A stretch of 64,000 bases of DNA from Planctomycetota bacterium (GCA_947484275.1 CANKOY010000017.1:1-64000); one strand, 5' to 3'; shown: positions 3,342-53,974, counted from the stretch's first letter. Numbers and translations: made by a program. The notes: generated by a model not told the origin, from the letters alone.

Positions 3342-3370
3342 CGCAGTCCTCGCGGTTGTTGCTCAGGAAC

Positions 3371-6607: not shown

Positions 6608-6652
6608 GGGAGTCGCTTGGGTTCGCTTGGGATCTCGGACTCGGGTGGAAAC

Positions 6653-14300: not shown

Positions 14301-15411
14301 CTGTATCCGCGAGGGAAAAGCCGAAATTGGAGAGAGCCAGGGTGTTGGGCCCACGGATCAGCGTGCCCTCGCGAATCTCGAAATCCTCGGCATCGAAACT
14401 GCCCGCAAATTCGAGGTGATCGTAGTGCCGCTCAAGAAACCTCACTTCGTCCACCTGACCGCTGGCGTGGGCCGTCCAATCTGCAATCGACGCCAAAGGC
14501 GCGCGGAAGACTCCGGTCAGGTTGGCGCGGCCCGCCAAGGTCGTGGTGACGCGAAGTTCGCTCAGCAACGCCGCGAGCTCCAATTCGCGCGCGCCGACCC
14601 AGAGCTCCAATCCTCCGCCGCCCACTGCGCCGTGCAGTTCCAATTCCCCGGCCCCAAGGTCGAGCGTTCCACCGAACCTCGCGCGCGAGCGCTCGAGTTC
14701 CCGCAGGTCCAAAGTGAAATCGCGGCAACTGGCGCCGCCTTCAAGGTCCAGTCGCGGGGACTCGAACACTCCCGCGCGGTAGCGTGCTTCGCCTGCCAGA
14801 CGAAAGGAGCGCTCGCCGTAGTTGACGTCGCGATACAAGCCGCGCCCGATGACGAGTTTCCAGGCGAAGGTGCCCGCGTTCGGCGCCGGAGCGCGAAGCA
14901 AGTCCAGCGCCCCGAGCTCCAGGAGCATTCCCGCGCCAAAATCGAGCGAAACCGACGCGTCGCGGACCTCGATCGGCGGCAAATTCGCGGGCCAGGGGAA
15001 GGGAGGCAAGTCCGCTCCGGGGACCACAACGGGGCGCTCGGCAGAAGAACGCTCCGCCAAGTCAATTTTCACGGACGCGTCACCCAAGTCGATCGAGTGA
15101 ATCGCGTTCAAATCGCCGCTGATTAATCCGCGCAGGTCGAAGTGCGCCACTGCCTTGCCAACATGCAGCGAGGTGAGCTCCGTAGTCGGTGTTCCGCCGT
15201 CCAAACGGCAGTCCTCGAGCTCGATTTCGCTCCACCAGTTGCCGCCGAGACGGCCCACTCGCAGTTCCAATCCCGTCGATGCGCGCAGGACCTCGGCCGC
15301 GCGCGCGACAACGAAGGGTGCGAGAACGCGCTCGCGCCCCAAGTACGCAGCGCCCGAAAGCAAGAACAACACACACACCAGCGCGCCGACCCGCTTGGTC
15401 CAGCGCCGCAT
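11320..15411 (-). CDS. tamB: Translocation and assembly module subunit TamB (DUF490-family, AsmA-like).
   Basis: Over 1300 aa, repetitive and beta-rich, with an N-terminal TM anchor (RRWTKRVGALVCVLFLLSGAAYLG). The C-terminus has a TamB-type conserved tail (...NFGVKLLFRFR). Its stop overlaps the tamA start. The start was chosen at the internal Met at 15411. Confidence 0.85.
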   Translation of the reverse strand: MRRWTKRVGALVCVLFLLSGAAYLGRERVLAPFVVARAAEVLRASTGLELRVGRLGGNWWSEIELEDCRLDGGTPTTELTSLHVGKAVAHFDLRGLISGDLNAIHSIDLGDASVKIDLAERSSAERPVVVPGADLPPFPWPANLPPIEVRDASVSLDFGAGMLLELGALDLLRAPAPNAGTFAWKLVIGRGLYRDVNYGERSFRLAGEARYRAGVFESPRLDLEGGASCRDFTLDLRELERSRARFGGTLDLGAGELELHGAVGGGGLELWVGARELELAALLSELRVTTTLAGRANLTGVFRAPLASIADWTAHASGQVDEVRFLERHYDHLEFAGSFDAEDFEIREGTLIRGPNTLALSNFGFSLADTGLEGVLRSLHGSAKLEVLDAGSLLVAAAPEVLRAADRVRRAQLSFEFSPTGFQVRTGLVRTDVGGLVVQRGSGSWGPRSLPWYEGLLIDLDAVLSFEDLAPVAALFGQGDVQGALAGTLALSGPLTSPSGRFRLSGSDLSLFGSKVGAVAIEARADNARLRLERLELDGPLGYASASGDFEYANGVLSNARVRGRTFALEQWSNSRASAGLLTFDANFAGPWRDPRVGATVQAWDLEFPEAAAAGSPRMIEQLELSGAFAAGCARIDQLEAKVAGVDVSASGSFRIPTDLSGPKVLLDRARLSRQELDLTLESQVELEFPPAGLIVRGLCVSGSAGRANADIVWTGNEKSIAIDAAELHPMQLLRPFLPEGMTIEGVHGSLAYRHTGADLALDVDLRVDELGLFADAPPGTLSFIGKLSGRELLIRQLVLSAPGHFGLALSGRVPVDPLATPWIGEGPLELAGDAIISDLSRLPLRRLGLSEDWRGNGTARFQLDGTSSQVGGSLETRVEIAGFPDDPGLSRGPSGTFQFEGAARLGESLKLERARLWLPERVEANFEGEIGLRLNLRRWLIDGPPVWDELPLSFSSRISVADLGFVAGLSSNLRRTAGELTGKLDIGGTLGAPTLTGNLDLSRAEVRLANSLAAFENLAAAIELDGMDLRINSLTGDYGAAPFAASGTVAFGRHEPQLDLKVKGEGLLLARDEGLRLRADADLALVGALSALKLSGEFMVVDGRFSKDFKLVSLPGSVNTGRTSEVELPFLRELPWANIEFDVRIGSRRPIRVETNIVWGTLEPQLELRGSGAAPRLEGTLVIGSGRVKLPAANLDVTSGLLTFRGGNRLTPDLDISAITRVRGYDITARVSGTSAEPELLFSSSPPLASEELAVLVLTGQLPETALSARGSEAAVETVAVYLGRDIMTRWLGIEGESEDPISERFEFYRGAEVSQTGIESTEFIFRLTPNPKGKSRILFLRAEEDVYEHVNFGVKLLFRFR

Positions 15412-15580
15412 GCTGCCCGCCTTTCGCGGAGCCTTCTCGGGCGTTCGTCCGCTCACTGGATCGCTCCTGCCGCGCGCAGTGTAGACCACGGCGGCCGCCC
15501 AGTTGAGCGCGCCACGGTATGGATTTCGAACAAGCGCAAGGCCCCGGCGACGCGGCCGGCCGGAGGGCGTCGTGGATCGA

Positions 15581-17008: not shown

Positions 17009-17064
17009 GACCATAGCGGATGGGTGAAGGAACGGCACAGTTCCTTCACCCATCCGCTATGGTC
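17009..17064. promoter_or_regulatory. Perfect 25 bp inverted repeat with a 5 nt spacer, in the 70 bp divergent intergenic region between the M64 peptidase and epimerase genes. Candidate operator site.
   Basis: gaccatagcggatgggtgaaggaac GGCAC agttccttcacccatccgctatggtc. The two arms are exact reverse complements of each other. The palindrome covers nearly the whole gap between the two start codons. Confidence 0.5.
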
Positions 17065-17072
17065 TGCGCAAC

Positions 17073-18647
17073 ATGCGGGTACTCGTCAGCGGAGCCACGG
17101 GATTTGTCGGCCGCGCCCTTTGCCTGCGCCTTGCGCGCGACGGGCACCAAGTCGTGGCCTGGGTGCGCAGTCCAGAGCGCGCGCGGCACTTGCTCGGGGC
17201 GGATGTCGAACTTGTCGCTATCGATGCTGGCGCTGGCGCCCGCAACGACGATTCCGGCGGGGAACTCGCACGGGAACTCTCGACCTGCGACGCGATCGTG
17301 CACCTCGCGGGCGAACCGGTGATCGGCAAGCGCTGGAGCGCGACGCAACGGGAGCGATTGCACTTGAGTCGCGTCGGCCTGGCGAATCGCCTCGTAGCAG
17401 CCATGTCCAAGTCCTCGCGCGCTCCGCACACCTTCGTCAGTTCGAGCGCCGTGGGTTATTACGGCGAGCGCGGCGACGATCGCTTGGGCGAGAATTCTCC
17501 CGCGGGGGACGATTTCCTCGCGCGCCTGTGCGTCGACTGGGAACAGGCGGCCCAAGCTGCCGCAAAGCACGGCGCGCGCGTCGTCTGCATGCGCACCGGA
17601 ATCGTCCTGGGCCCCGAGGGCGGCGTGCTCGGCGCGATGCGCTTGCCGTTTCAATTGGGCCTCGGCGGCCCCCTGGGTTCCGGCCGCCAGTACGTGCCCT
17701 GGGTTCACCTCGACGATCTGTTGGAGATGTACGCCCTCGCCCTGACGGATCCGACCATCGAAGGCCCGTGGAACGCGACCGCTCCAGAACCGGTGACCAA
17801 TGCGGAGTTCACTCGCGCCCTGGGCCGCGTTCTCCGACGCCCCGCCATTTTTACCGTGCCGAAGTTCGCGCTGTACGCAGCCCTGGGCGCGTCGGCTTCT
17901 GCGCCCCTCGGCAGTCAGCGCGCGATTCCAGAGCGCTTCCTCGGCCGCGGCTTCGCTTTCGTTCATCGCCAGATCGAGTCGGCGTTGCGCGAGATTCTGC
18001 GCGGCGATCACGGACTGCGCCTCGGCCCCGCGCGCGAAGTTCCAGATCACGCCTACTTGCGCGCTCGACGACCGACTCACGTCTTGGAGCAGACCACCGA
18101 AATTCGCGCGCCCCTGGCGCAGGTGGCGCAGTTTTTTTCCAAGGCGGAAAACCTCGGGATCCTGACGCCGCCGTCGATGGTCTTCCGCGTCGAGACGCCG
18201 CGACCGATCGCCATGGCCAAGGGCACGCGCATCGACTACACGCTGCGCCTTGGACCGTTTCCCTTGCGCTGGCGCACATCGATCGAAGTCTGGGACGACA
18301 GCGCAGGTTTCAGCGACGCGGAGGAACGCGGGCCGTTCCATTGTTGGTGGCACGAACATCGCTTCGAGGCCCAGGGGGAGGGCACGCTGATGCGCGACCG
18401 CGTGTTCTTCGCGGTGCTCCCCCGCTGGATCGGTTGGCTCGGATGGATGGAACGCGCGATCGTCGCGCTGACCGTGGGGCGCAGACTGCGGCGCATCTTC
18501 GGCTATCGCTCGCAGGCCATGGCCTGGAGGTTCGACGCCCGCGTTCCTAGCAGCCCGTTGAAAAAATCCCGTCGCGAGGCGCAGCGATCTTCGTCGTGGC
18601 TAGGAACGCGACGGAGGGACGGCGGAGGCGGCCTTCCTGGCCGCTGA
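17073..18647 (+). CDS. TIGR01777/YfcH-type NAD-dependent epimerase (DUF1731) fused to a C-terminal SRPBCC (START/Bet v1-like) domain. The last approximately 32 codons are read from a repeat element.
   Basis: MRVLVSGATGFVGRALCLRL is a Rossmann motif. The YfcH-like core follows, then a 150 aa SRPBCC-like region. The ORF continues into the palindromic element that begins at 18551. Confidence 0.8.
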   Translation: MRVLVSGATGFVGRALCLRLARDGHQVVAWVRSPERARHLLGADVELVAIDAGAGARNDDSGGELARELSTCDAIVHLAGEPVIGKRWSATQRERLHLSRVGLANRLVAAMSKSSRAPHTFVSSSAVGYYGERGDDRLGENSPAGDDFLARLCVDWEQAAQAAAKHGARVVCMRTGIVLGPEGGVLGAMRLPFQLGLGGPLGSGRQYVPWVHLDDLLEMYALALTDPTIEGPWNATAPEPVTNAEFTRALGRVLRRPAIFTVPKFALYAALGASASAPLGSQRAIPERFLGRGFAFVHRQIESALREILRGDHGLRLGPAREVPDHAYLRARRPTHVLEQTTEIRAPLAQVAQFFSKAENLGILTPPSMVFRVETPRPIAMAKGTRIDYTLRLGPFPLRWRTSIEVWDDSAGFSDAEERGPFHCWWHEHRFEAQGEGTLMRDRVFFAVLPRWIGWLGWMERAIVALTVGRRLRRIFGYRSQAMAWRFDARVPSSPLKKSRREAQRSSSWLGTRRRDGGGGLPGR

Positions 18648-26121: not shown

Positions 26122-27069
26122 ATGATCGAGATCCACAAGCTGACCAAGCGGTTCGGCCTGTTCACCGCAGTCGACGACATCTCCTTTTCCGTCCAGAAGG
26201 GCACCGTGCTTGGCTTCCTAGGTCCCAACGGAGCGGGCAAGTCGACCACGATGAAAATGATCACAGGCTTCCTGTCGCCCACGTCGGGCAGCGCGAAGGT
26301 CTGCGGCCACGACGTCGAGTCGGAGCCCATCGCAGCCAAGTCGCGCCTGGGCTACCTGCCCGAAGGCGCGCCCCTGTACCCCGATATGACGCCGCGGGCG
26401 TTCCTCGGCTTCATCGCCGAGCTGCGCGGCATGGCTGGCGATCGTCGCGCGCGCATCGAGGAGGTCGTGGCCAAAATCAATCTGCAGAGCGTGCTCGATG
26501 TGCCGATCGAGCATCTTTCGAAGGGCTACAAGCGCCGCGTCGGAATCGCCCAGGCGATCCTGCACGACCCTGAGGTCTTGGTGCTCGACGAACCCACGGA
26601 TGGACTCGATCCCAACCAAAAGCACGAGGTGCGCGCCCTGATTCGCTCCATGGCCCGCGACAAGGTCGTGATCCTCTCCACGCACATCCTCGAGGAAGTC
26701 GAGGCCCTGTGCACCCGCACGATCATCATCTCCAACGGGAAACTGGTCGTGGATTGCTCACCGGCGGAACTGGCGGCGAAGTCGCGCTATCACAACGCGG
26801 TCTCGCTTCGCGTTCCCTCCAGTCAAAGTGAACGCATCGCTAAGACCCTGGGGGCCATGGAGCAAATTGCCAAGCTCGAAACCGTCCCGGGAAATCAAGG
26901 TCGCGACACACTGGTCGCTTTTCCGCGCAACGGCGCCTCGATCGCAGCGGACATTGGCGCAAAAGCGCGCGATGAACGCTGGGAAATTGATGAATTGCGC
27001 GTCGAGGCCGGCCGGCTCGACGAAGTCTTCCGCACCCTGACGGGCGCCACCTCGCCGTCCGCCCTCTGA
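26122..27069 (+). CDS. ABC-2-type transporter ATP-binding protein (GldA-like).
   Basis: Walker A GPNGAGKST. LSKGYKRRVGIAQAI signature. Walker B LVLDEPTDGLD. It is followed by ABC-2 permease and GldG-like genes. Confidence 0.9.
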   Translation: MIEIHKLTKRFGLFTAVDDISFSVQKGTVLGFLGPNGAGKSTTMKMITGFLSPTSGSAKVCGHDVESEPIAAKSRLGYLPEGAPLYPDMTPRAFLGFIAELRGMAGDRRARIEEVVAKINLQSVLDVPIEHLSKGYKRRVGIAQAILHDPEVLVLDEPTDGLDPNQKHEVRALIRSMARDKVVILSTHILEEVEALCTRTIIISNGKLVVDCSPAELAAKSRYHNAVSLRVPSSQSERIAKTLGAMEQIAKLETVPGNQGRDTLVAFPRNGASIAADIGAKARDERWEIDELRVEAGRLDEVFRTLTGATSPSAL

Positions 27070-27079
27070 ACCACGCGTC

Positions 27080-27820
27080 ATGTCCAAGACAATCACACTC
27101 ATGAAGCGCGAGTTGGCGGGCTACTTCGCCACGCCGGTCGCCTACGTCTTCCTGGTCATCTTCTTGCTGCTGAGCGGGATCCTGACTTTCTACGTCGGCA
27201 ACTTCTACGAGAACGGTCAGGCAGACCTGCAGGCGATGTTCGCCTTTCAGCCCTGGCTGTACCTGTTCCTGATCCCAGCCATTTCGATGCGCCTGTGGGC
27301 CGAAGAACGCAAGAGCGGCACGATCGAACTGTTGATGACCTTGCCGGTCTCCCTGGGCCAAGCCGTGCTGGCGAAGTTCATTGCCGCCTGGCTGTTCGCC
27401 GGGATCGCCCTGGCGCTGACATTCCCCTTCTGGATCACCGTCAATTTCCTCGGCAGCCCCGACAACGGAGTGATTCTGGCGAGCTACCTCGGCAGCTTCC
27501 TGATGGCCGGCGGCTTTTTGGCCATAGGCAGTTGCGTCTCCGCCTCGACCAAGAACCAGGTGATCGCCTTCGTGATCGGGGTGGCGATCTCGTTCATGTT
27601 CGTGATGGCCGGCTATCCAGCCGTGCTGAACTTCATCAAGGCGATCCCCGGAAGCGGTCAGACGCTGGTCGACGCGGTCAGCTCGCTTAGTTTCTTGACG
27701 CACTTCTATGCCATCACCACCGGAGTCATCGACGTGCGCGACCTGGTGTACTTCGGATCACTGATCGGTTGCTTCTTGTTCGCGAATGCTGCGTTGGTCG
27801 AACTCAAGAAGGCGGACTAG
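27080..27820 (+). CDS. ABC-2-type transporter permease (GldF-like).
   Basis: 246 aa with 6 predicted TM helices. Its position is typical of gldA-gldF-gldG-type operons. Confidence 0.8.
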   Translation: MSKTITLMKRELAGYFATPVAYVFLVIFLLLSGILTFYVGNFYENGQADLQAMFAFQPWLYLFLIPAISMRLWAEERKSGTIELLMTLPVSLGQAVLAKFIAAWLFAGIALALTFPFWITVNFLGSPDNGVILASYLGSFLMAGGFLAIGSCVSASTKNQVIAFVIGVAISFMFVMAGYPAVLNFIKAIPGSGQTLVDAVSSLSFLTHFYAITTGVIDVRDLVYFGSLIGCFLFANAALVELKKAD

Positions 27821-27823
27821 TCC

Positions 27824-29731
27824 ATGAACAAACGCTTCCTCACCCTGGGCGGCCTGGGCATCGCGGCCGCAATGCTGATTTCGATCAACGTGGTCTCGAA
27901 CGCGACCCTGCGCTCGACGCGCGTCGATTTGACCGAGGACAAGCTGTTCACGCTCTCAGCCGGGGCAATCAACATTCTCGGCAACCTGAAAGAGAGCGTG
28001 ACGCTGCGCCTGTACTACTCGCACAAGGTCGGCGGCGACATCGCCTCGATCGCGAAGTATGCGCAGCGCGTCGAAGAACTGCTGCGAGAGATGACGGTGC
28101 ACTCCAAGGGCAAGCTGACGCTCGAGGTGATCGACCCCGAGCCCTTCAGCGAAACCGAGGACCGCGCGGTGCAATTCGGTCTGAAGGGCGTGCAGGTCGC
28201 GCCGGGCCAGGACCTGTTGTACTTCGGCCTCGCGGGCACGAACACGACCGATGAAAAGGACGTGATTCCGTTCCTGCAGCCGGACAAGGAGGCGTTCATC
28301 GAGTACGACGTCACCAAGTTGGTTTTCTCGCTGTCGAACCCGACGAAGAAAGTGCTCGGCATGCTCAGCACGCTTCCGCTCGACGGCGCCATGGCCAATC
28401 CCATGACGCGCGGCCCCGGCGCCGAGCCCTGGCTTGTGGTGGAGCAGATGCGCGAGTTGTACGAGGTCAAGACCGTGCAACCGAACGCGAAGGAGATTCC
28501 CTCCGAAATCAGCGTGTTGATGGTCGTGCACCCCAAGGCTCTCGGTCAGGAGACGCTGTTCGCCCTCGATCAGTACGTGCTCGGCGGCGGGCGCCTGATG
28601 GTGTTCGTCGATCCGTTCTGCGAAGCGGATCAACCGCCCCAGGACCCGAGTGATCCTATGTCGCAGTTCAAGGCCCAGCGCGGCTCGGACCTCGGTCTGC
28701 TGTTCAGCGCCTGGGGCGTGCAACTGGAAGCGGGCAAGATCGCCGCGGACCTCGACAACTCGTTGCGGGTGCAGTTCTCGAACCGCTCACGGGATGACTC
28801 CGGAAAATACGTGGTCTGGCTCGACCTGAATTCGAGCACGCTCTCCAAGGAGACGGTGGTCACCGATCAGATCAAGTCCATGAATCTGATCTCGGCTGGC
28901 GTGCTCTCACAACCGGCGGAGGCGACAACCAAGTTCACGCCGTTGATTTCCACCGGAGACAAGGCCTCCACGGTCCTGGTGTCATCGGTGCAGTTCCAGG
29001 CGGATCCGAAAACGCTGCTCAATGACTACATGGCGGGCGACAAGGCCCTGACCTTGGCCGCGCACATCACTGGCAATGTCAAGACGGCCTTCCCCGGCGG
29101 ACGGCCGAAGGCGCCGGAGAGCATGGACGAAGTTCCCACACCTGCGCCCGCGGAAGGAACGGTGCTGACGGAATCCAAGTCGCCGATCAGCGTGATCGTG
29201 GTCAGCGACTGCGACATGCTCCAGGACCGCTGGGCCTTCAGTTCACAGAACATCGGTGGCATGCGCTTCGCTTCCCCGGCCAACGGAAACATGGCCTTCG
29301 TCTCGAACTCCGTGGACTTCCTCGAGGGCTCCACTGATCTGGTCAGCCTGCGCAGCCGCGGTAGTTCGCGCCGGCCCTTCGAGGTCGTCGAAGCCCTGAA
29401 AACGGCCGCCGATCAACGCTTCCGCGCGCGCGAGCAGGCACTACTGACGAAGTCCGACGATGCTTCGAAGCGCATCGAGGAACTGCTGAGCAAGCGCCAG
29501 GGCGCCAGCTTCGACCTCCTCTCGGCCGACGTGCAGGTGGAGATCGAGAAGCTGCGCGAGGATCAGCTGAGCGCGCGCAAGGAGCTGCGCGAGGTGCGCC
29601 TCTCGCTAAACAAAGACATCGAGAGCCTGGGCTCGCGGGTAAAGATGATCAACATTGCCCTGATCCCGGCGCTCCTGGTGGCGTTTGCCCTGGGGCTCTC
29701 GCGTTGGCAACGTTTGCGGCGCAAGTCCTAG
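27824..29731 (+). CDS. GldG-like ABC-transporter auxiliary component (COG3225 family).
   Basis: 635 aa with N- and C-terminal TM anchors and a large periplasmic domain. The gene order matches GldG-type auxiliary proteins. Confidence 0.7.
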   Translation: MNKRFLTLGGLGIAAAMLISINVVSNATLRSTRVDLTEDKLFTLSAGAINILGNLKESVTLRLYYSHKVGGDIASIAKYAQRVEELLREMTVHSKGKLTLEVIDPEPFSETEDRAVQFGLKGVQVAPGQDLLYFGLAGTNTTDEKDVIPFLQPDKEAFIEYDVTKLVFSLSNPTKKVLGMLSTLPLDGAMANPMTRGPGAEPWLVVEQMRELYEVKTVQPNAKEIPSEISVLMVVHPKALGQETLFALDQYVLGGGRLMVFVDPFCEADQPPQDPSDPMSQFKAQRGSDLGLLFSAWGVQLEAGKIAADLDNSLRVQFSNRSRDDSGKYVVWLDLNSSTLSKETVVTDQIKSMNLISAGVLSQPAEATTKFTPLISTGDKASTVLVSSVQFQADPKTLLNDYMAGDKALTLAAHITGNVKTAFPGGRPKAPESMDEVPTPAPAEGTVLTESKSPISVIVVSDCDMLQDRWAFSSQNIGGMRFASPANGNMAFVSNSVDFLEGSTDLVSLRSRGSSRRPFEVVEALKTAADQRFRAREQALLTKSDDASKRIEELLSKRQGASFDLLSADVQVEIEKLREDQLSARKELREVRLSLNKDIESLGSRVKMINIALIPALLVAFALGLSRWQRLRRKS

Positions 29732-29747
29732 TTTACGGAGGCACAGC

Positions 29748-31025
29748 ATGAACGCACGCACACTCCAAGTCATGACGATCGTGGCGCTCGGCGCAGCCGG
29801 CGCGGCGTGGTACGTCTCGCGCACCACCAGCTCGAGCGCGGCCAAAGCCGCCTCGAACGGCGCGCTGTTCTTCCCTGAACTGGCGGCGAAGTCTGCCGCT
29901 GTCCAGTCGATCCTCGTGCAGTCCAAGGGTCAGAGCTTCACCCTTCAGAAGCAGGGCGACACCTGGGGAATGACCGACAAGGGCGGCTATGCCGTCAACT
30001 TCGACAAGGTGAAGGATCTGGTGTCGAAGCTCGCCTACTTCGCGGTCCTCGAGAAGAAGACCGACTCACCCGAACTTTTCGGCAAGCTCGAGCTGGAAGA
30101 CGCGGGCGCCGAGGGCGCGAAATCGACGCGCGTAACGCTCTCCGATGCTTCGGGCACGGCGCTCGCCGACATTCTGCTGGGCAAGAACGCCAGCGGCGGC
30201 GGTCCGGGCTTGTCGTCGATGTATGTGCGCCGTCCGGGCGAGAACCAGACCTACGAGGTCAACGGTTCGGTGTACATCGACGGCACGGCGAGCAATTGGC
30301 TCGACAAACAGATCGTCAAACTCGAGCGCGCACGCGTGCACCGCGCCGAAACGCTGCGCGGTGACGGCGAACGCCTGCTGATCTCCAAGGCGTCGCCCGA
30401 TGAAAAGAACTTCTCGGTCCAAGATCTTCCGGCGGGCGCGGAGCTGAAGTGGCCCGGCGTGGCTGACGGAATCGCCGGCGCCATGGAGTACCTGAATTTC
30501 GACGACGTTCAGGCCGCGGGCGCAGTGGATTTTGGCGCGCCGCAGAGTTCCACGATGACCCTGCGGACATTCGATGGACTCGAAGTCACGGTCAAGGTGA
30601 TCGAGCAAGAGGGCAAGTTCTATGCGCAGTTCGGTGCGCGCTTCGATCCGAGTTTGCGGGTCGAGGTGGTGAAGTACGAACTCCCGCAGGTCGGCCCCGA
30701 ACTGCCCGCCACGGACCCGGCGGCGGACCCCGCCGCGGCGCAACCGGTGGAAACTCGCTCCGTGCCCGGCAAGTCCGCGGAAGAGGTCGCCAAGGAAGCC
30801 GCTGAGCTGTCCGAGCGCTTTTCCAAGTGGACCTACGTGCTCCCGGGCTACGCCGCCTCGAACTTCTCCAAGTCCATGGGCGAGATGCTCAAGGAAGTCG
30901 GTCCGCCATTGGGCCCCGTGATCGGAGACGGCGACGTCGACGGGGGCGACGAAGGCGGAATCCAAGACCCAACCGAGGTCCCCCCCGCGGAAGTGCCTCC
31001 CCCGCCCACCGGCGGCGGCCAATGA
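29748..31025 (+). CDS. DUF4340-like protein, the frequent fourth gene of GldA/F/G-type ABC operons.
   Basis: N-terminal TM/signal. Approximately 425 aa periplasmic protein with a Pro/Glu/Asp-rich C-terminus. Its position directly after the GldG-like gene matches the common DUF4340 arrangement. Start taken at the ATG at 29748. Confidence 0.55.
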   Translation: MNARTLQVMTIVALGAAGAAWYVSRTTSSSAAKAASNGALFFPELAAKSAAVQSILVQSKGQSFTLQKQGDTWGMTDKGGYAVNFDKVKDLVSKLAYFAVLEKKTDSPELFGKLELEDAGAEGAKSTRVTLSDASGTALADILLGKNASGGGPGLSSMYVRRPGENQTYEVNGSVYIDGTASNWLDKQIVKLERARVHRAETLRGDGERLLISKASPDEKNFSVQDLPAGAELKWPGVADGIAGAMEYLNFDDVQAAGAVDFGAPQSSTMTLRTFDGLEVTVKVIEQEGKFYAQFGARFDPSLRVEVVKYELPQVGPELPATDPAADPAAAQPVETRSVPGKSAEEVAKEAAELSERFSKWTYVLPGYAASNFSKSMGEMLKEVGPPLGPVIGDGDVDGGDEGGIQDPTEVPPAEVPPPPTGGGQ

Positions 31026-31839: not shown

Positions 31840-33903
31840 TCAGGGCGCGATTTGCGCTTCGAGCGCGTTGGTCAACGTCGCGTTGTTCGGCGCGGCGAAT
31901 CCCTGGTCGCGGCCCCAGAACTGGGTGCGCACTGTGTTGCCAACCACCTGCAAGCCCGGATCGCCCGTGCCGCCGGTGATGAAGGCGTTCAAGTCGAGCG
32001 TGTACACCCCGCTGCAGTCATTGCCCGTGGGATTGCCGCCCGAATTGAGCGCCGACGAGCGGCGAACAGGGCTGGCCACGCACAGCGTGCCTCCGGAGAA
32101 CGGCGCCGCGGCGCGACCGGTCAGGCTGTACATCAAGAGCCCCGGCTTGTTGTTGCGCACGTTCGTGCCGCGGACCGTGAAGCCGCTGCCCGCGCTGACG
32201 GACGGATTGCTGCCGATGAAACCGATCGACGGCGTGCAGCCCAGTGAGTTCACCTTCGGCGTGCAGTACACAACCGGCGGCGTGGTGCAGATCGACGCAG
32301 TGGATGTGTGGAACGCGGTGGGTGCGTCCTCGGGGCTCGACCAGACGATTCCGTTGCTGGCCGTGGTGCCGGTCACGTAGTACTGGAAGGTCGTGTTGCA
32401 GGCCACCGCCGGAAAATTCGCGTCGTAGAGTCCCCCGCCGAGCGCCACCAGGGGCACGCTGATCCAGTTGCCGGTCGTGCGATACCAAAGGCGCTCGGTG
32501 CCAGCGGTCAAAAGGCCCGCCTGGGACTGGTTGATCTGCACGCGCAGGCTGTGTCCCAGGTTGGAAACGGCCGCGGGTTGACCGTTGGGGAACGAAAAGG
32601 TGAGTTGGTGCGCGCCGACCCACCACACGAACAGGCCGCTCTCCAAGTCGGAGCCGGTGACCACGCCACCGGGGTGGAACGGATAGACGTTCCAAAGCCC
32701 GTTGTAGGTCGGGTTGTCGTCCGTGGTGCGCGTGTCGAACCAGGCGATTTCGGGAGGATTGTTCGGATTCTGCGCCAGGTCGTAGACGCGCACTCCGCTG
32801 GTGTACGCGGCCTGGAACAGCTTTGTCCCCAGGGTGTACTCGTTGTGCGGAATGGCCGAATTGCCATTGTTGAAGGAGCCGAGGAACACGGGCGCCGATG
32901 TGCCCAGACCCGAGATGTCAAAGACGTGGTTGATCGTCGGACCGCCGAGGTTGGGCACGTAGAGTTCGTCGTTGAGGTACAGGCGCGACTTGTCGGCGGA
33001 CAGCGTGCACTGATGGCCGTACTGACCGTTCGGCCAGGTGATGCGCGGCGTCACCGCTGTGATGTTGGCCTTGTTGGTTACATCGAGGATATCGACGCCG
33101 GTGTTCGCCCAACCGCCGTTATCGCCGCCGCAGGCGAAGGCGATCTCTTTGCCCGCGAGCGGACCGCTGGTGTAGTTCACCAGGGTGACTTCGTGTGTGT
33201 ACCGAGAGGACCAGGACGCCACGTACAACGGCGCCGCGGGGTTGGGATTCAGGTTGTAGATCCGCAGACCGTTCGAACCTCCGCCGGAGCGATAGAGGTA
33301 TCCGGTTTGAGTGTTGATCTCCATCGAGTGTGTCGCCGCAGGCGACGGGCCCGAGGTAATCGTGTTCACCAGGGTGACGACGCCACTGTCGATGTTCGCC
33401 AGATCGATCACCTGGATGCCGCCGCCGCCCTCGCTCACTGCGTAGGCGTAGTGCGAGAACACGCGCACGTCGCGCCACAGACTGTCTGGTCCCGCGATGT
33501 AGCCGACGTTCACGGTTTGCCCCGGCGCCGTGATCTCAGCGAACCCGGTGCCGCCGTAGAGCCCCATCAATGCGTAGCGCCGACCCGAGGCGGAAACGTA
33601 GCCCCAGCCGGAATTGCCGTTCTGCTGGTTCGCGCCCCAGGTGTTCAGGGGCAGCCACGACAGGAGCTTGACGTTGAATGAACTGAACGGCGACGAACTG
33701 TAGGAACCGGAACTGCCGGGGCCGGCGGGCACGAATCCAGGCAAAGGCGCGCCCAGCGGGCCCAGGGGGCTGTGGTACCCGGGCCCCGTGTAGGGCGCGC
33801 GGCGATCAAGCACCTTTCCGTCGCCATCGTGGGCGCCAACTAGGGCGCCGAGGGTCATGGCAGCTGCCAAGGCGAGGAACAGGTTGCGGGGTGAACCGAT
33901 CAT
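31840..33903 (-). CDS. Secreted LVIVD-repeat beta-propeller protein carrying a approximately 150 aa Cys-rich C-terminal domain of unrecognised type.
   Basis: Signal peptide ([24 protein letters not shown]). LVIVD-like repeats ([39 protein letters not shown]). The C-terminal 150 aa are approximately 65% identical to the C-terminus of the 46741..48726 protein. Confidence 0.75.
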
Positions 33904-34276
33904 GGAAGGGCTCCTGCGGTGCGAATCGGGTAGGGGCAATCGCGAGTATGTCGCCCCTGGATCCTACACCCTGGGACGGTTCGTCAATGATTCGTGAAGA
34001 CTCTGTCAGCCGGGCCATTCGGTGCAGGAGCGCAAATCCCAGTCAGGCAGGGCTCCGCCTGTTGGATGTCGAGCCCCTCGCGGACTCGATCCCCTGGGAC
34101 GCTGGTCTCGGTCGGGTGCCGGAGGAAAGAGGGCCCGCAGCTCCACTAGGGAGTACTCGCTGCGTCTGGACGAAAGGACGGCCCTGGGTTCATGAAGCCC
34201 TTCGGCGCCTGTGGAATCGATCCCGCCCGCAGGCCCGGGTGGATTTGCTGCGGAGCCCCCGGTAGCGTGCGGCCCA

Positions 34277-43259: not shown

Positions 43260-44378
43260 TTATTGCTCTCCCCGCCGCGCGGCGAGCGCCCGCCTCCAGC
43301 CTTGCACGACTGGATCGTAGCGCTCGGGCCACCAGCGTCCGGAGATCGCTCCCGCCTCCGCTGACAGCCCCGTACTGGGCTGATCCGGGGAGCCGGGCGC
43401 GCCGGGCGCCGCAACCGTCGATCGATTCGAGCCGACCATTGTGCGGTCCGGCGGCCCGTTGGCCAGCGCAGACTTTGTCGCGTCCATTCCCGCGGAGTCC
43501 TCGGGCCCGCCGCCGAGGCCCGGGGAGGCGCCCGAAGCGCGAACAGGCGCTGGCGAGGCTCCCTTTTCAGCGCTGGCCAATTCCGTGACCGGCAGCGCGC
43601 GTTCGCGGTCGATTTCCTGCTGCAGCCGGTCGATCGCTTCGCGCGCGGCGGACCTAGAAGCGGCGCGCTCGCGCTCGCGGCCCAGCTCGACCCCGGCAAG
43701 ATCGAGATCCGCGAGCCGTCGCGCGCGGGCCTGGGGATCCACCGCAGCCGCCGCGCGCTGCTCGCGGGCCCTGGAGAGCGCGGCCCGTGCCGAGGATTGA
43801 GGGGGTGTCCGCCGGTCGCCGCCGGCCGCGGCAAGTTCGCTTTCCTGCCCCAGATGCGCGCTGCTCACGCGCCCGGGCGCCTCCAGGGCCAAGGCTGCGA
43901 GCGACAAACCTACGGCAGGTGGCGCGAGCCAGATCCAGCCCGGGGCGGGCTGAGCCCGTGCAAGGCTCACTTTGGTGAGCGCCGACAATTCGCGCTGCTC
44001 CAGTGAGCGTGCCAGGGCCCCCACTTCACCGCGACACAGCGCCTCGTACACGCTTGCCAGGGCTCCACCGCGCCCCAAGCGCCCGTCGATTTGCTGCGCC
44101 AACTCGAGATCAGTTCGCTTTGCGCGCTCGACCCACCACGTGGCGGCGGCCGCTGCGCCAGACAACGCGGCGCATGCGACCAACCCGGCGAGTCGGTCCC
44201 TTATCGAAGTGTGAGCATCGAACGAGAGGATCGCGGCCGCGGCGCCGAGAGCCCCGGCGCACAGCCCGAGGGCAGCGGACTCAAGGGCCGTGAAAGCTCT
44301 GCGCCGGCGGCGAACTTCGGCAACGAATTCGACGATCGAATTCGGTGCATCGCGGCGGTCGTGCCCCGTTGGCATCAA
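43260..44378 (-). CDS. Hypothetical membrane protein with an Ala/Arg/Glu-rich coiled-coil-like region.
   Basis: Two to three N-terminal hydrophobic helices followed by low-complexity A/R/E-rich sequence. Overlaps the upstream gene by 4 nt. No known domain. Confidence 0.4.
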   Translation of the reverse strand: MMPTGHDRRDAPNSIVEFVAEVRRRRRAFTALESAALGLCAGALGAAAAILSFDAHTSIRDRLAGLVACAALSGAAAAATWWVERAKRTDLELAQQIDGRLGRGGALASVYEALCRGEVGALARSLEQRELSALTKVSLARAQPAPGWIWLAPPAVGLSLAALALEAPGRVSSAHLGQESELAAAGGDRRTPPQSSARAALSRAREQRAAAAVDPQARARRLADLDLAGVELGRERERAASRSAAREAIDRLQQEIDRERALPVTELASAEKGASPAPVRASGASPGLGGGPEDSAGMDATKSALANGPPDRTMVGSNRSTVAAPGAPGSPDQPSTGLSAEAGAISGRWWPERYDPVVQGWRRALAARRGEQ

Positions 44379-45298
44379 CGACCGTCCTTGGGCGGCGGCG
44401 GGCCTTCGTCCCCGGGCGCGAGGACGCGGCGCGCGTCGCGGGCAGCCGGCTCAATTTTGGGCAGGCCGGCGGCCAGGGCAGCGGGAATTTCCGTGAGCCT
44501 CCCGCGCGAGAAAAATAGCGCCACCTGCTCGCCGCGCTGGGGAATCAGCCACGCGTTCGGCAGCCAGATGGTCTGCTCGACGCATTCGGGCAGGGCCGAC
44601 GTGATCAGGGTGTACGCCTCGTTGAAGTAGGCGACGTTGATCAGATTCTGGTACACGTCCGCGGCGAATTGCTCCCGCGGATCCTTGTCTTTCTTGCGCG
44701 GATCCGGCGGCAGCATCTTCGATCCCAGATACACCCAGCGATGGCGCTGCATGCTCGCACCCGTGAGCAAGTTCCGCAGCAAGTCCTCGACGCGATAAAA
44801 GAACAGCTCCTCGCCCTGGCGCCAGGCGAGGTTGAGTTCGAATCCGTCGCCCTCGGGCACGGTCACTTCATAGGGCGTGACGCCTGCGCGCATTTCCGCT
44901 TCGCTGGGCCGCGGCTCGCGCGCCTGCCACTTCGCATTGCGCCCCGGAGCGACGCCGAGGGCGAGCAGAGCGGTGTTGAGCACACTGGGCCGAATGTGCG
45001 TGCTGAACATGCTCTCGTGGGTCGCGCCCGCGGAGCCCACGAGCAGGTACTCCAGCAATTCGTCGCGCACCTCGATGCGCACCGGAATCCACATCGCATT
45101 TGATTTCGGATCGAGATGCACGTCCTGGGCGCGCATGGCTTCCACCAGGGCTGCGAGGGCAGGATCCTCAGGCCCAACCTGGGCCGGCGACTGCGGGGTC
45201 GCGGTGTGGGAGCGCCAGGCCAGAGCCGTGGCCGCAAGCAACGCGATCAGCGCAAACGCGCTCGCGAACTTCGTTAGGCGGGATGAGGTTTGCGACAT
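44375..45298 (-). CDS. Hypothetical secreted protein. Start taken at the Met that begins the signal peptide.
   Basis: MSQTSSRLTKFASAFALIALLAATALA is a signal peptide. No recognisable domain. It is the first gene of a four-gene minus-strand unit ending in MIPS and the M3 peptidase. Confidence 0.4.
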   Translation of the reverse strand: MSQTSSRLTKFASAFALIALLAATALAWRSHTATPQSPAQVGPEDPALAALVEAMRAQDVHLDPKSNAMWIPVRIEVRDELLEYLLVGSAGATHESMFSTHIRPSVLNTALLALGVAPGRNAKWQAREPRPSEAEMRAGVTPYEVTVPEGDGFELNLAWRQGEELFFYRVEDLLRNLLTGASMQRHRWVYLGSKMLPPDPRKKDKDPREQFAADVYQNLINVAYFNEAYTLITSALPECVEQTIWLPNAWLIPQRGEQVALFFSRGRLTEIPAALAAGLPKIEPAARDARRVLAPGDEGPPPPKDGR

Positions 45299-45431
45299 GA
45301 CAGGAGTGTAGTGCGGCGTGGAGGGCGTCCAAAGTCGGCGATCTGCCGCAGCCGCAAACGCCCCGTGTCCAGGGCGGTTCATTCGCGGCGGATTCCGGGC
45401 GTGTGCACAGGGGAAGCAGCGCGGCTCGCGC

Positions 45432-46740: not shown

Positions 46741-48726
46741 TCAAGGGCCAACGATGAACTCGAGCCCGTTGGAAAGCGTCGAGTTGTTCGGGGACGCGAA
46801 GCCGTTGTCGCGACCCCAGAACTGGCAATCCACCAGCGTGCCCAAAACCGTCAGGAACGCCTGCGGGCTGCCACCGAGACCGCCAACGGCGAACGTGTTC
46901 ATGTCGATCGCGTAGGTGCCCGAGCAATCGTTCGGCGGAGGATTGCCACCCGAGTTCAGCGCGGTGGAGCGACGGACCGGCGTGCCGACGCAGCGCAGAC
47001 CGCCTTGGAACGGAACTGCCGCTTGACCACCATTGGTGTAAAGCAAGAGGCCCGGCTTGTTGTTGATCACGTTCGTCGCGGTGACGCTGAAGCCCACACC
47101 GGCCGTCGCGCTCGAAACGCCCGAGGATCCGATCGAGGGCGTGCAGCCCAGCGAGTTCACTTTCGCCGTGCAGTAGACGACCGGGCAGGTGCCCGAGAGC
47201 GTGTAACCGAACGCGGACGATGCGGTCCAATCCGAAAGCCAGGTCCTGCAGGAAGCGCCAGGCTCGAAGCCTCCGCGGTAGGACGCTGGGGTGAAGAATC
47301 CGTCGTTGGGGGCCGAGGCAACGCTGACCATGGCGGCGTTCGCCGGACGCGGGTTGAGCCCGATGACCGGAACCATCGTCTTGCCCCCCTTGACCACGGC
47401 CGGGCCGCGGGTGACCGACACCACGGGCGCGTCAGCGTCCAGGATGCCCGGGATCAGCACGTTGTTGTTGCCCGCACCGAACACTCCAACGGTGGTCGCC
47501 TGGGTGTAGGCCGAGGCGAACGGATTGCGGAAGAAGACGCTGTCGGTGACCTCGGCCAATTTGCCCGAGGTTTGCACCTGGTAGAACGCTGCCGGATTCG
47601 CCGGATCATTGGCATGGGCCGGGACTGCATTGAAGTCGGTCGTCCAGGTGTTCGCCCAGCTCAAGGTCCCATTGAATCCGTAGCCGTTGGCGCCATCGCC
47701 ATCTACGTTGTCGAACTTGACCAGCTCCTCGCCGAGGTCCATGAAGATGCAGTTGCGGTACTGAGCACGAGCGTTGTCGCGCCAGGCCGTTCCATGGTCA
47801 CCGGCAACCGGCTGGCCGATCACCGTGAAGTTGTAGATCGTCGTCGTGGTCACGGGCTGCCAGTTGGAGTCCTCGGCGCCGTCCACCTCGAAGCAGTTGT
47901 CGCCGACGCCCGAGCCCTGGGCCGCGTTCAGGCTGTGGCCTTGAACGATCAGGCCAAACTGCGCCTTCCCGCGCCAACCCTGGTCGACGTCGAAGGAGTC
48001 GTCACCGATGTTCCAGATGCTGATGTACTTCAGGCCGACGGTCCCGCCCCAAATCTCGATGCCGTCGTCGACGTTGTTCATGATCTCAACGTGATGGATG
48101 TCCGTGCCACGGCCGATGCCGCCGAGGGACAGACCGTTCAACTCGTTGTTCAGCCCGACGACCTTGCCGCCGTAGCGCAGCGACAGATAGCTGATCGTGC
48201 CGCTGTCATCGTCGTCGTTGCCCCCGCCGTAGCGATCCGTCGAGGGCCCGTTCACGAGGCCTTCCATGTCGGCGACGTTGCTGGCGCTCGGGACAGGTGT
48301 GTTCGTACCAATGGCGTTTTCGGAAATGAAAGCCGCGCCCATGATCGTGAGATTGCCCCACTCGTTGGCGGACTCGCGCCACGTTCCGGTCTGGGGGTTG
48401 CCGCTGATCCAGGTGGCCTGGTCGGCCGTGGAAGTCATGATCACGGGCTGGGTGCGCGTGCCGTTGACGAAGATCTGCGCGCCCTTGCACACCGCGAGGC
48501 TGCCGCCAAGGTTGGTCTGGCTTGCGATGACGGTGCCCGGCTCGATCGTCAGTGTTGCGCCGGGCAGCACGTAGATCTGCTGCTGCAGCTTGTAGGTGTT
48601 GTTCGCTGTCCAGGTCGTTGAAACAGCGATGTTTGCGGTCACGAGGATGTCGGCGGCCTGGGCGGTCGAAGCAAGGCCGGCGCAAAGCAGGGCGGGAACG
48701 GCGGTTCCCTTCAAGAGGCGTCTCAC
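46741..48726 (-). CDS. Secreted right-handed parallel beta-helix protein carrying the same approximately 150 aa Cys-rich C-terminal domain as the LVIVD protein.
   Basis: GTG start at 48726 with an AGGAGA RBS 7 nt upstream. Signal peptide [22 protein letters not shown]-terminal [30 protein letters not shown] is typical of beta-helix glycosidase/lyase-like proteins. The C-terminal 150 aa are approximately 65% identical to those of the 31840..33903 protein. Confidence 0.75.
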
Positions 48727-49059
48727 GGTTGGCTCTCCTTGGAGTCGGATGGGGATCTCCGCGCAGGCCAGGGAGACTCCCCGGCGAAATGCTGCACGTG
48801 CGGGGGATGCTAGAAGCGCTTTGTGCATGGCCCGTGAAGCGACAGTGAAAGTCCGCCGGGAAAAACGACCGCGCCAGAGCACAGGATCAGGGCCCAGCAT
48901 CCAGCGCGAACCCCTGCGGACCGCTGGACCTTGAGAGCGTGATCGCGCCGCCAGCGCACCTTTCCGCCTGCCGGACCCGAGAGAAACGACACCGGATGAC
49001 GCGCAGGAGGCTGCGCGCTGTGAACTCCTCTCGAAAAGGAGTTGTGTTCGAAGGCTGGG

Positions 49060-50469
49060 TTAGCGCTGAGACTTGGAAAGGCGCTCGACCTGCTCGAGGT
49101 AGCGCGCAATGTCCTCGCGCGGCTTGAGTTCCTGCGTGCGTCGCAACGGCGCAAGTGCGTCGCTGTACCTGCCCATCCCCACGAGTACCTGCGCTTGACT
49201 GATCAGGGCCTGGGGCGCGTAGGCATCCAGGCTCGCGGCGCGCTCGTAGTAGAAAATCGCGCGGTCCGGTTGGCTGGTCCGCGAGTAGTGCTTGGCCAAG
49301 AGCATCAATGCCTCGCCATCCAGTGGATCGACCTTGACGATCTCCTCGAGCACGCTCGCAGTTTCCTCGTTCTCGCTACCGTCGGCCATGGCAAGTCGCG
49401 CGTCGAGTTTCAGCAACTTCTGGCGCTCGATCGGCTCGATTCGTCCCGCCCAGGAGCTGTTGATGCGCCCCAGAACTTCGCGCGCCAGTTGCGGCGTCCC
49501 GCGCGAGGCGAGAATTTCCGCGGCTCGCATGGGGCGGGAGATGGGTTGATTCACATCGACATCGATCGCGCGCAGGTAAGCCCGGGCGGCGAGGTCCAGC
49601 AGGTTTTCCCCGACGTAAATGTCGGCGAGCGTGTGCGCGCTGTCGACGCTCGCAAGCCCCAGGCGATCGATGGCCTCAAGGTTGACGGCAGCCTTCAGCG
49701 GTTGCTTCAGCCCAAGATAGGCGTGTGCCTGCAACAGCCAGAATTCTGCTTTGTCCGGATAGCGCGCAATCAGGACCTCCAATAGCGAGGCGCAATCCTC
49801 GAACTTGCCCTGCCGAAACACACAGCGCGTGAGCCCCAGACGCCACTCGGTGTTTTCGGGCTGCAGCAACAGCGCATTGCGGTACGCCGCCTCCGCGGGC
49901 TGATAGTCCTGCTTGGACGAATACGCGAATCCGAGGAGCCCATAGGAATAGGCGTCTCCGCCACCAAGCTCGAGCATGCGCACGAACGCGGCAATCGCCG
50001 GATCGTATTTGCCCTGACGCACCTGGATCAGCCCCAAGTTGCGCCAGGCACGGCGAAAGCTCGGGAACTTCTTGATCGCCTTGTCGTAGCTCTCGAGCGC
50101 CGAATCGAAGTTTTCCTGCTGGAAATGAATGCCGGCGAGGGTGAAATCAAGGATCGCCGAGCAATCCGGCTTCATGGCCTTCTTCAGCGCCGCCTCGGCC
50201 TTGGCCAAGTCGTTCGCCGCCATCAATGGACGCACCTTCTCGAGAATCCCAACCTCATCAAGGGTGACGCGCGGCTCGATCTCGGCGTTGACTCCGTAGG
50301 CCGCGACGAACTGACGCTGGAACGTGGGATCGTTCCAGATCGATTCGATAGTTCCTCGGGCGCTCTCCTGGGCGGCCGCGCCAGCTGCCAGGATCAAGCC
50401 CGCCACGCAGGTCCCCAGGATTGTGAAGCTGCGCCGTGCTCGGCGCCCATTGCTCAAGGTTTTCATGTT
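49060..50469 (-). CDS. TPR-repeat periplasmic protein of the TonB system cluster (TtpD-like).
   Basis: Signal peptide (MKTLSNGRRARRSFTILGTCVAGLILAAGAAAQ). Multiple TPR-like repeats. It is the last gene of the minus-strand TonB cluster. Confidence 0.7.
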   Translation of the reverse strand, partial: NMKTLSNGRRARRSFTILGTCVAGLILAAGAAAQESARGTIESIWNDPTFQRQFVAAYGVNAEIEPRVTLDEVGILEKVRPLMAANDLAKAEAALKKAMKPDCSAILDFTLAGIHFQQENFDSALESYDKAIKKFPSFRRAWRNLGLIQVRQGKYDPAIAAFVRMLELGGGDAYSYGLLGFAYSSKQDYQPAEAAYRNALLLQPENTEWRLGLTRCVFRQGKFEDCASLLEVLIARYPDKAEFWLLQAHAYLGLKQPLKAAVNLEAIDRLGLASVDSAHTLADIYVGENLLDLAARAYLRAIDVDVNQPISRPMRAAEILASRGTPQLAREVLGRINSSWAGRIEPIERQKLLKLDARLAMADGSENEETASVLEEIVKVDPLDGEALMLLAKHYSRTSQPDRAIFYYERAASLDAYAPQALISQAQVLVGMGRYSDALAPLRRTQELKPREDIARYLEQVERLSKSQR

Positions 50470-50477
50470 CAAGTTCC

Positions 50478-51185
50478 TCAGTCGGGTTGAAAGCGCATGG
50501 TCAAGCGCATCCTCGCGGGGACACGTTTTCCACCCTGGAGCCGTGGCTCGAAGCGCCACTGGCGAATGGCCTCCAGCGCGGGCCGCTCAAAGGCGGGGTG
50601 CGAGGACTCCGCGACCTTGGGAGTGTTCACGCTGCCGCTCTCGTCGAGATTGAAGATCAGCGTGACTTGTCCGTCGATGTTCTTGCGACGCAGTTCGGCG
50701 GGATACAGCGGCGCCACTTGGAAAATGGCGCGCGCACTTTGATCGAATTCGGACAAACCGAGCGCGGTCTCGATCGGGTCGCCGGGACCGCCAGCCTTGC
50801 CCGTGCCGCCGATGCGTCCGCCTGAGCTGAAACTGAGTGCGGCGCCGAAGTCAGAGCCGCCACCGGTTTGGTTCAGCGCCGCCTCGATCGCGCTCAGGCT
50901 GGCGGCCTCCAGCGCCGGAGCGCTCTCCTCGAGGCTGGGAGCGCTGCTTTGAGCCACGTCGATCGGGTCCGGAGGACTCTCGGTTTCTTGCTCGAGTTCC
51001 TGCTCCTGCGGCACTTCCTCCTGTGGCTCCTCGGGTTTCTGCGCTTCGACTGCGCCGAGCAATTCCACTTCCTGCGTGGTCGCAACGCTGCTCTCGCCCT
51101 GGCCGAACAACAGACCACCGAACAGCAGGATCCCCAAGTGGAGCAGCACTGCCCCCACGATTCCGAGTCCCCAAGCGACCTTCAC
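50478..51185 (-). CDS. tonB: Energy transducer TonB.
   Basis: N-terminal TM. Pro/Glu-rich spacer (EEPQEEVPQEQELEQETESPP). C-terminal TonB domain (NIDGQVTLIFNLDESGSVNTPKV...RMRLTMRF). Overlaps exbD by 4 nt. Confidence 0.85.
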   Translation of the reverse strand: MKVAWGLGIVGAVLLHLGILLFGGLLFGQGESSVATTQEVELLGAVEAQKPEEPQEEVPQEQELEQETESPPDPIDVAQSSAPSLEESAPALEAASLSAIEAALNQTGGGSDFGAALSFSSGGRIGGTGKAGGPGDPIETALGLSEFDQSARAIFQVAPLYPAELRRKNIDGQVTLIFNLDESGSVNTPKVAESSHPAFERPALEAIRQWRFEPRLQGGKRVPARMRLTMRFQPD

Positions 51186-51604: not shown

Positions 51605-51606
51605 GG

Positions 51607-53921: not shown

Positions 53922-53974
53922 GCGTCAGTTCGCTGGTTCGTTTGCGATGTGTGGATCGGTGCAATGTCGATGAT

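Follow-up and report, generated by a model that had tools for sequence, protein, structure and literature searches.

The C-terminal domains (CTDs) of proteins handled by the secretion system of type IX (T9SS) are strictly terminal and single copy; they comprise type A (Por_Secre_tail, PF18962/TIGR04183) and type B (TIGR04131), and PorU, the T9SS signal peptidase, belongs to the C25 family. Dockerins (PF00404) instead dock proteins non-covalently to a surface scaffold, whilst the PEP-CTERM/exosortase, GlyGly-CTERM and MYXO-CTERM tags are only 25-40 residues long and have a motif, then a transmembrane helix, then a basic cluster. Two domains of around 100-180 aa, Fib_succ_major (PF09603/TIGR02145, of Fibrobacter succinogenes) and PPC (PF04151), are found on the ends of many secreted proteins; each has expanded in a single lineage, and a role in surface retention or secretion is presumed. 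Here we describe a further terminal domain, referred to below simply as the CTD, which was found on two secreted proteins encoded by open reading frames (ORFs) A and B in a 64,000 nt stretch of DNA from a Planctomycetota bacterium (GCA_947484275.1, CANKOY010000017.1:1-64000; this whole stretch is termed the window). We think that the CTD is probably a shared C-terminal cell-surface sorting or anchoring module, used across many proteins of an uncultured Planctomycetota lineage.

When ORF A and ORF B were compared over their whole lengths by BLASTP, the sole significant alignment was between their C-termini, at 58% identity over 170 aa (E 8e-52), and the remaining segments of the two proteins gave only E values above 2. 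This bears out the original prediction, made from the sequence of the window alone, that two otherwise unrelated proteins share a C-terminus of around 150 aa; both ORFs were present at the coordinates that it gave, on the minus strand. In a codon-level alignment the two CTDs are 63% identical at the amino acid level over 147 codons, with a synonymous divergence (dS) of around 0.9 and a non-synonymous divergence (dN) of around 0.36. Because dS is this high, the copies are not recent duplicates, and recent gene conversion is likewise ruled out; they are old paralogous modules under purifying selection. No third or degenerate copy was found in the window, which has a G+C content of 65%, either by tblastn or with two profiles, one of which represented a divergent subfamily. 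The number of Cys residues common to the two copies is five, not six as first proposed, and four of the domain's Cys are invariant in all 128 family members described below. Nor does the ORF A copy lack an additional N-terminal Cys, as had been supposed: an upstream Cys is present, within a stretch of 11 residues, and the missing one is that of the 'VDCQ' strand. The FWGRD(N/Q)GF block remarked on at the outset is real, and forms part of a QxWGRD motif found throughout the family.

This family is large. An exhaustive HMMER search of 1.84 billion representative sequences (clusters at 50% identity) detected 5,956 proteins with the CTD at E <= 1e-3, 4,804 at E <= 1e-10 and 1,749 at E <= 1e-30. 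Every match with a source name comes from a 'Planctomycetota bacterium' metagenome-assembled genome (MAG), and a scan of species-representative genomes yielded 265 confirmed copies, the best 80 of which fell in only seven MAGs, labelled Planctomycetota or Planctomycetaceae. Counting fetched loci alone, such that the figures are lower bounds, five MAGs have at least 51, 21, 20, 20 and 13 CTD genes. Head-to-tail tandem arrays of three to five of these genes are common (L001, L004, L042, L034, L047, L062 and L069), with L001 having four complete copies and one fragment; the passengers of adjoining genes are often of the same family, a sign that entire cargo genes have been duplicated locally. The nearest named orthologue of ORF A, P0310 (550 aa, from MAG Fred_18-Q3-R57-64_MAXAC.309; 72% identity), has an Arg-rich nonsense tail where the CTD would be. 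The tail resembles the product of an assembly frameshift that hides the domain, and counts of the CTD from such assemblies are therefore underestimates.

The position of the domain is almost constant. Of the 150 best HMMER hits, 146 have a match that extends to the final residue or the one before it; a profile search of the fetched loci identified 128 complete ORFs with a CTD, 127 of which stop 0-2 residues past it; and amongst database proteins, 293 of 298 end within two residues of the domain, with none having two copies. The clear exceptions number four, of which three resemble frameshift read-through. By contrast with this uniform end, the N-terminal parts of the 127 carriers in related genomes form 43 clusters without detectable mutual similarity, in agreement with the earlier view of a portable module on unrelated secreted scaffolds. 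Near-stop position and dozens of copies per genome likewise lend support to the suggestion, made there, that arrangements of this kind typify signals for sorting or anchoring, or a binding module that the proteins have in common.

No known family was found to account for the CTD. It has no Pfam or NCBIfam match on either window protein at E <= 1, the sole NCBIfam match to the pair being that of TIGR04312 to the N-terminal portion of ORF A. Even when all 29 members of the family alignment (alignment A1) were scanned singly at E <= 10, the domain remained empty in both databases, as anticipated by the original prediction, which could recognise neither a short CTERM tag nor a T9SS CTD in it. Searches of PDB sequences with a single CTD and with a profile gave nothing better than E 0.08, there was no significant match to described carbohydrate-binding module or Ig-like families, and full-text searches of the literature found no description of the domain. 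A confident match to a known family and a lack of enrichment at protein C-termini had together been named as grounds for abandoning the idea of a sorting signal; the database searches and the terminal positions speak against both.

The AlphaFold2 (AF2) model of the CTD (pLDDT 93.2, pTM 0.88) is a beta-sandwich, largely composed of beta structure with two short helices, and the domain is predicted to be a previously undescribed, autonomously folding unit. It is globular, ends in a beta-strand of the form ...LEYxVxP, and has no hydrophobic helix. Median pairwise identity amongst the 128 CTDs is 64%, and around 57 of 150 columns are at least 90% conserved across paralogues with unrelated passengers; the conserved motifs are YCTAKxNSLGCxP (more generally YCTxKxNSLGC), NNKPGL, NDCSG and QxWGRD. 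Many of these columns are polar and lie in segments of the model that lack regular secondary structure, whilst the four invariant Cys fit folding outside the cytoplasm. The structural neighbours of the model are generic Ig-like or macroglobulin-like domains. As these are often spacers, and C-terminal pre-peptidase-type domains exist on secreted proteases, the CTD might be thought to have no targeting role at all, being instead a structural, stabilising or oligomerisation domain, an intramolecular chaperone or a pro-domain that has spread by domain shuffling inside one lineage. We consider this very improbable: a spacer is not expected at the extreme C-terminus in around 98% of some 430 proteins, nor would it keep about 57 near-invariant, largely polar positions over 43 types of passenger, and a chaperone suited to one fold cannot serve so many.

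The proteins related to the N-terminal portion of ORF A indicate what else can occupy the same site. The initial description of this protein as an LVIVD beta-propeller is reasonable: the NCBIfam model TIGR04312 (choice-of-anchor B) matches with E 2.1e-66 over 355 of its 364 positions, the score of 224.7 bits being above the cut-off of 100, and PF08309 (LVIVD) is present in the homologues, whose names are also choice-of-anchor B. The 'choice-of-anchor' name denotes surface proteins attached via alternative C-terminal systems, namely LPXTG, PEP-CTERM or T9SS, in a study that concerns the related choice-of-anchor A domain, not B (bioRxiv 10.1101/2023.03.06.531300). We surveyed 120 homologues of the ORF A passenger, reading their tails. 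At least 32 have dockerin-like tails made of EF-hand pairs, several of which bear the PF00404 label; in at least 20 the end is formed by a short hydrophobic helix followed by a basic cluster; eight end in the CTD; and eight end in a module of around 140 aa characterised by the motif FQxWYRD. The CTD therefore occupies the place of surface anchors or sorting tags in related proteins. Dockerin-like EF-hand pairs are also the commonest choice-of-anchor B tail in Planctomycetota, Phycisphaerae, Acidobacteria and Acanthopleuribacter (P0311-P0428), a hint that surface docking of a cohesin-dockerin-like kind is widespread beyond the Firmicutes.

The FQxWYRD module was found to be homologous to the CTD by hhalign (probability 97.4%, E 9e-12), which suggests that the two form a wider superfamily. 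Only two of the four invariant Cys are retained in it, the first and the third, and we therefore infer disulfide pairing of Cys16 with Cys76 and of Cys25 with Cys99 (profile numbering) in the main family. Its carriers (alignment A2) are P0385, P0387, P0357, P0394, P0410, P0414, P0426 and P0363, and it is also linked with a minus-strand ORF at approximately 1952..3697 in locus L014.

The passengers of the CTD were characterised by a Pfam scan of 30 representatives, amongst which proteases, propellers and oxidoreductases dominate. Matches of protease type are to proprotein-convertase P-domains, subtilase S8 and M14 carboxypeptidase; those of propeller type are to RCC1, FG-GAP, SBBP and other beta-propellers; and there are further matches to a legume-type lectin, a PQQ-type sugar dehydrogenase (GSDH), a cytochrome-c-peroxidase-like (CCP-type) protein, DUF4394 and DUF7453, to which precomputed labels add DUF4082 and BNR repeats. 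An N-terminus resembling a signal peptide, with basic and hydrophobic parts, was detected by a crude hydrophobicity test in 91 of 115 full-length representatives.

This range of passengers bears on the idea that the CTD is a new family of carbohydrate-binding module (CBM) or lectin, directing proteins not to the surface of the producing cell but to a substrate outside it. A beta-sandwich with invariant Trp, Arg, Asp, Asn and Gln residues in its loop motifs is typical of sugar-binding sites, such modules need no linker, and the rate at which the CTD evolves between orthologues is ordinary. However, by Pfam there is no glycoside hydrolase, polysaccharide lyase or carbohydrate esterase amongst the 30 representatives, an absence that favours sorting or anchoring over substrate targeting; CBMs occur in variable positions and numbers, whereas the CTD is nearly always terminal and never in tandem; there is no Pfam CBM match; and the slot that it fills in the choice-of-anchor B proteins otherwise holds anchors, not CBMs. 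Hence a CBM or lectin seems improbable to us, if less so than a domain with a purely structural function.

A second way of reading the same data is that the CTD acts as a cleavable, T9SS-like secretion signal: an outer-membrane translocon would recognise the folded domain and a sortase-like peptidase would remove it, the passenger possibly becoming attached covalently to a surface glycolipid. Like the T9SS signals, the CTD is found in single copy at the C-terminal end of Sec-exported cargo, a position more strictly kept than is usual for binding modules, and is modelled as a beta-sandwich; its dozens of cargo genes per genome are scattered without a local partner, and the S8 proteases with P-domains, propellers and lectins recall T9SS cargo. 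Additionally, one metagenome contig of 340 kb has a gene of the Peptidase_C25 family (L083:20111-21002, minus strand) at a distance of around 9 kb from a CTD gene. Against this, none of the 29 alignment members matched a T9SS CTD model in Pfam or NCBIfam, the domain is roughly double the length of those CTDs, no conserved motif marks the junction that precedes it, and the T9SS is not known from Planctomycetota. No gene of the T9SS core (SprA/Sov, PorV, PorU, GldK/L/M/N) is present in the 64 kb window, and although the best NCBIfam matches of an ABC operon beside ORF A are GldA, GldF and GldG, every score is under the curated cut-off, and the link to T9SS was rejected. The C25 peptidase was likewise rejected, having been seen in that one locus only amongst those fetched; DsbD and thioredoxin-like genes lie near it. 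Overall, we judge a cleavable signal to be unlikely; were it nevertheless the case, this Planctomycetota lineage would have to possess a system for secretion or attachment that is as yet undescribed.

The dedicated processing protein whose co-occurrence had been proposed as a check was not found; the clustering of 1,260 flanking ORFs from 79 loci revealed no recurrent neighbour family. CTD genes are scattered, and the most widespread flanking family, a CarboxypepD_reg repeat protein, was rejected as a partner as it is found in only 6 of the 79 loci. In flanking DNA (around 600 kb) taken from carrier MAGs, a regular-expression screen detected no PEP-CTERM-like or dockerin-like tails, which is weak evidence.

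We favour a sorting or anchoring module because of its strict terminal position in single copy, its dozens of paralogues per genome, the unrelated Sec-exported passengers, the invariant Cys and polar loops, its restriction to one lineage and its substitution for dockerin-like and hydrophobic tails. Under this model, each protein would be exported by Sec through an N-terminal signal peptide, as read from the sequence; the CTD would then fold in the oxidising periplasm, locked by the two proposed disulfides; and the invariant loops (YCTAKxNSLGC, NDCSG and QxWGRD) would present one constant surface on dozens of unrelated proteins. A single shared partner in the envelope could recognise this surface and so set the destination of the protein. 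The existence and nature of such a partner, as well as the surface localisation itself, are inferred. Several observations count against this model. No partner, translocon or processing enzyme for the CTD was identified in our searches, and its genes have no recurrent neighbour; neither a low-complexity or flexible linker nor a conserved cleavage motif precedes the domain, which abuts the domain before it, Cys being the only residue enriched just upstream. The CTD is not evolving unusually slowly between orthologues: its identity is 64% where that of the passenger is 73%, and 77% where that of the passenger is 83%, so that it diverges about as much as the passenger and is therefore not unusually constrained. 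P0154 (742 aa) has a convincing internal CTD, the only one seen, at residues 464-612, with repeats rich in Cys and Asp (CPxDPLKxxPGxCGCGxxDTDxDGDG) after it; the domain, with its 150 residues, exceeds the size of any established sorting tag; the conserved W/R/D/N/Q motifs would be just as appropriate in a lectin that binds a ligand; and all named carriers come from uncultured MAGs.

If the CTD does sort or anchor, it could be because a receptor or glycan of the envelope retains the protein, as a dockerin or other non-covalent anchor does, or because a translocon recognises and removes the tag. We lean modestly towards retention, because the alternatives found in the same slot are retention devices, because the CTD is large with motifs like those that bind ligands, and because neither a junction motif nor evidence of a T9SS was found. 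A more speculative proposal, which we think doubtful, is that, in a lineage of uncultured Planctomycetota, cargo is recognised through the CTD by an undescribed outer-membrane pathway of secretion or attachment, an independently evolved functional analogue of the T9SS with its own translocon, possibly a C-terminal signal peptidase, and at least 50 cargo proteins per cell.

The features of the two loci are listed in the table. A mechanical listing of ORFs extends ORF A to 31840..33939 (699 aa) and ORF B to 46741..48900, both on the minus strand. The likeliest start codons are those given in the table; each has a Shine-Dalgarno-like sequence before it and opens a Sec-type signal peptide. The exact 687 aa and 661 aa proteins are already recorded in a public collection, and the gene call for ORF A agrees with that on ENA metagenome contig k141_3286239 (67,343 bp), which is home to both. 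ORF A is flanked on one side by a methyltransferase and a Na+/H+ exchanger, and on the other by an enoyl-CoA hydratase and the convergent ABC operon discussed above. A stretch resembling the spacer between its propeller and CTD is found in some homologues (e.g. P0380).

Features of the window associated with the two CTD genes and their neighbourhoods
Feature	Coordinates	Strand	Description	Basis
ORF A	31840..33903	-	687 aa, secreted choice-of-anchor B / LVIVD-type beta-propeller protein; probable start ATG at 33903 after AGGAG	
ORF A predicted Sec signal peptide	33832..33903	-	24 residues ending VGA, followed by HDG	Read from sequence; putative cleavage site between VGA and H
ORF A passenger, choice-of-anchor B (TIGR04312)	32626..33696	-	Residues 82-438 of the 699 aa listing	NCBIfam
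ORF A spacer	32293..32625	-	Around 110 aa between propeller and CTD	No Pfam/NCBIfam match
ORF A CTD	31840..32292	-	150 aa plus stop codon (31840..31842)	BLASTP, family alignment A1, AF2 model
ABC operon	26122..31025	+	ABC ATPase, ABC-2 permease, ABC_transp_aux (GldG-like) and DUF4340; convergent with ORF A	
ORF B	46741..48726	-	661 aa, secreted; probable start GTG at 48726 after AAGGAG	
ORF B predicted Sec signal peptide	48655..48726	-	24 residues ending AQA, followed by ADIL	Read from sequence
ORF B CTD	46741..47193	-	150 aa plus stop codon	
TonB-type cluster (whole)	49060..56983	-	Upstream of ORF B	Pfam and NCBIfam
TonB-dependent receptor	53975..56983	-	CarboxypepD_reg-TonB-dependent receptor	Pfam/NCBIfam
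DUF3450 protein	53025..53921	-		Pfam/NCBIfam
Large MotA/ExbB protein	51607..53130	-	507 aa	Pfam/NCBIfam
TonB_C protein	50478..51185	-		Pfam/NCBIfam
TPR protein	49060..50559	-		Pfam/NCBIfam

The passenger of ORF B has no Pfam, NCBIfam or PDB sequence match, and its earlier description as a beta-helix thus has no evidence at the sequence level. ORF B is the terminal gene of the same-strand TonB-type cluster, which we take to be reminiscent of the Vibrio TonB2/Ttp clusters. An orthologue that is 70.5% identical is found in another MAG, in locus L022, where the gene order TonB_C, TPR, ORF B is retained (L022:1546-5435); because of this conservation, ORF B may work together with a TonB-type uptake system. 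Elsewhere in the window (9242..15489, minus strand), an Omp85/BamA-type protein, scoring over the BamA cut-off, is encoded directly downstream of a 1,389 aa protein with a TamB domain, therefore confirming a diderm envelope with a TAM/BAM-type assembly module. There are also long ORFs without a Pfam match (752, 437, 372 and 335 aa), considered putative genes, at 4919..7177 (plus strand), 17046..18359 and 43260..45382 (both minus strand).

Little is understood of the way in which Planctomycetota position enzymes and adhesins on their unusual cell surface, and the CTD marks a large share of the probable surface or secreted proteome of a lineage of uncultured soil and wastewater bacteria. A profile of it would allow thousands of proteins that are at present 'hypothetical' to be annotated as probable cargo, surface or secreted, and the domain itself could serve as bait for the receptor or machinery that recognises it. 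Were this a dedicated translocon, it would represent a new protein-sorting system; were the partner a receptor or glycan, it would represent a new principle of non-covalent surface anchoring beside the dockerin-like modules of related bacteria.

Of the described systems, the T9SS CTDs share with the present domain a strictly C-terminal location in single copy, a beta-sandwich fold (a prediction in the case of the present domain), and dozens of unrelated Sec-exported cargo proteins per genome, including proteases, propellers and lectins, with genes scattered on the chromosome. They differ in being only about 70-100 aa long, in matching none of the 29 CTD members even at a permissive threshold with PF18962, TIGR04183 or TIGR04131, and in their distribution amongst the Bacteroidota and the wider Fibrobacteres, Chlorobi and Bacteroidetes (FCB) group, whereas the present CTD is found in Planctomycetota, in a window where no T9SS genes were seen, and has, besides four invariant Cys, polar motifs in its loops that are strongly conserved. 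Dockerins are also small, mostly C-terminal modules on many secreted proteins, and dockerin-like tails fill the slot of the CTD in homologues of the ORF A passenger, in place of the domain and not inside it; they are, though, calcium-binding EF-hand pairs of around 60 aa, whereas the CTD is a 150 aa beta-sandwich, predicted to be disulfide-bonded, with no Pfam dockerin match and no cohesin-like partner identified. The PEP-CTERM/exosortase, GlyGly-CTERM and MYXO-CTERM tags are similarly lineage-restricted and C-terminal on many secreted proteins, and hydrophobic-plus-basic tails of the PEP-CTERM-like type hold the same slot in other choice-of-anchor B proteins, but these short tags contrast with a globular CTD that ends in a beta-strand and has no NCBIfam match. 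Fib_succ_major and PPC are alike in being lineage-expanded domains on the ends of many secreted proteins, with no sequence relationship to the CTD detected and a different lineage, set of motifs and Cys pattern. Judged by its sequence, the CTD belongs to no described family, yet functionally it appears to resemble the T9SS CTDs, the dockerins and the PEP-CTERM-type tags.

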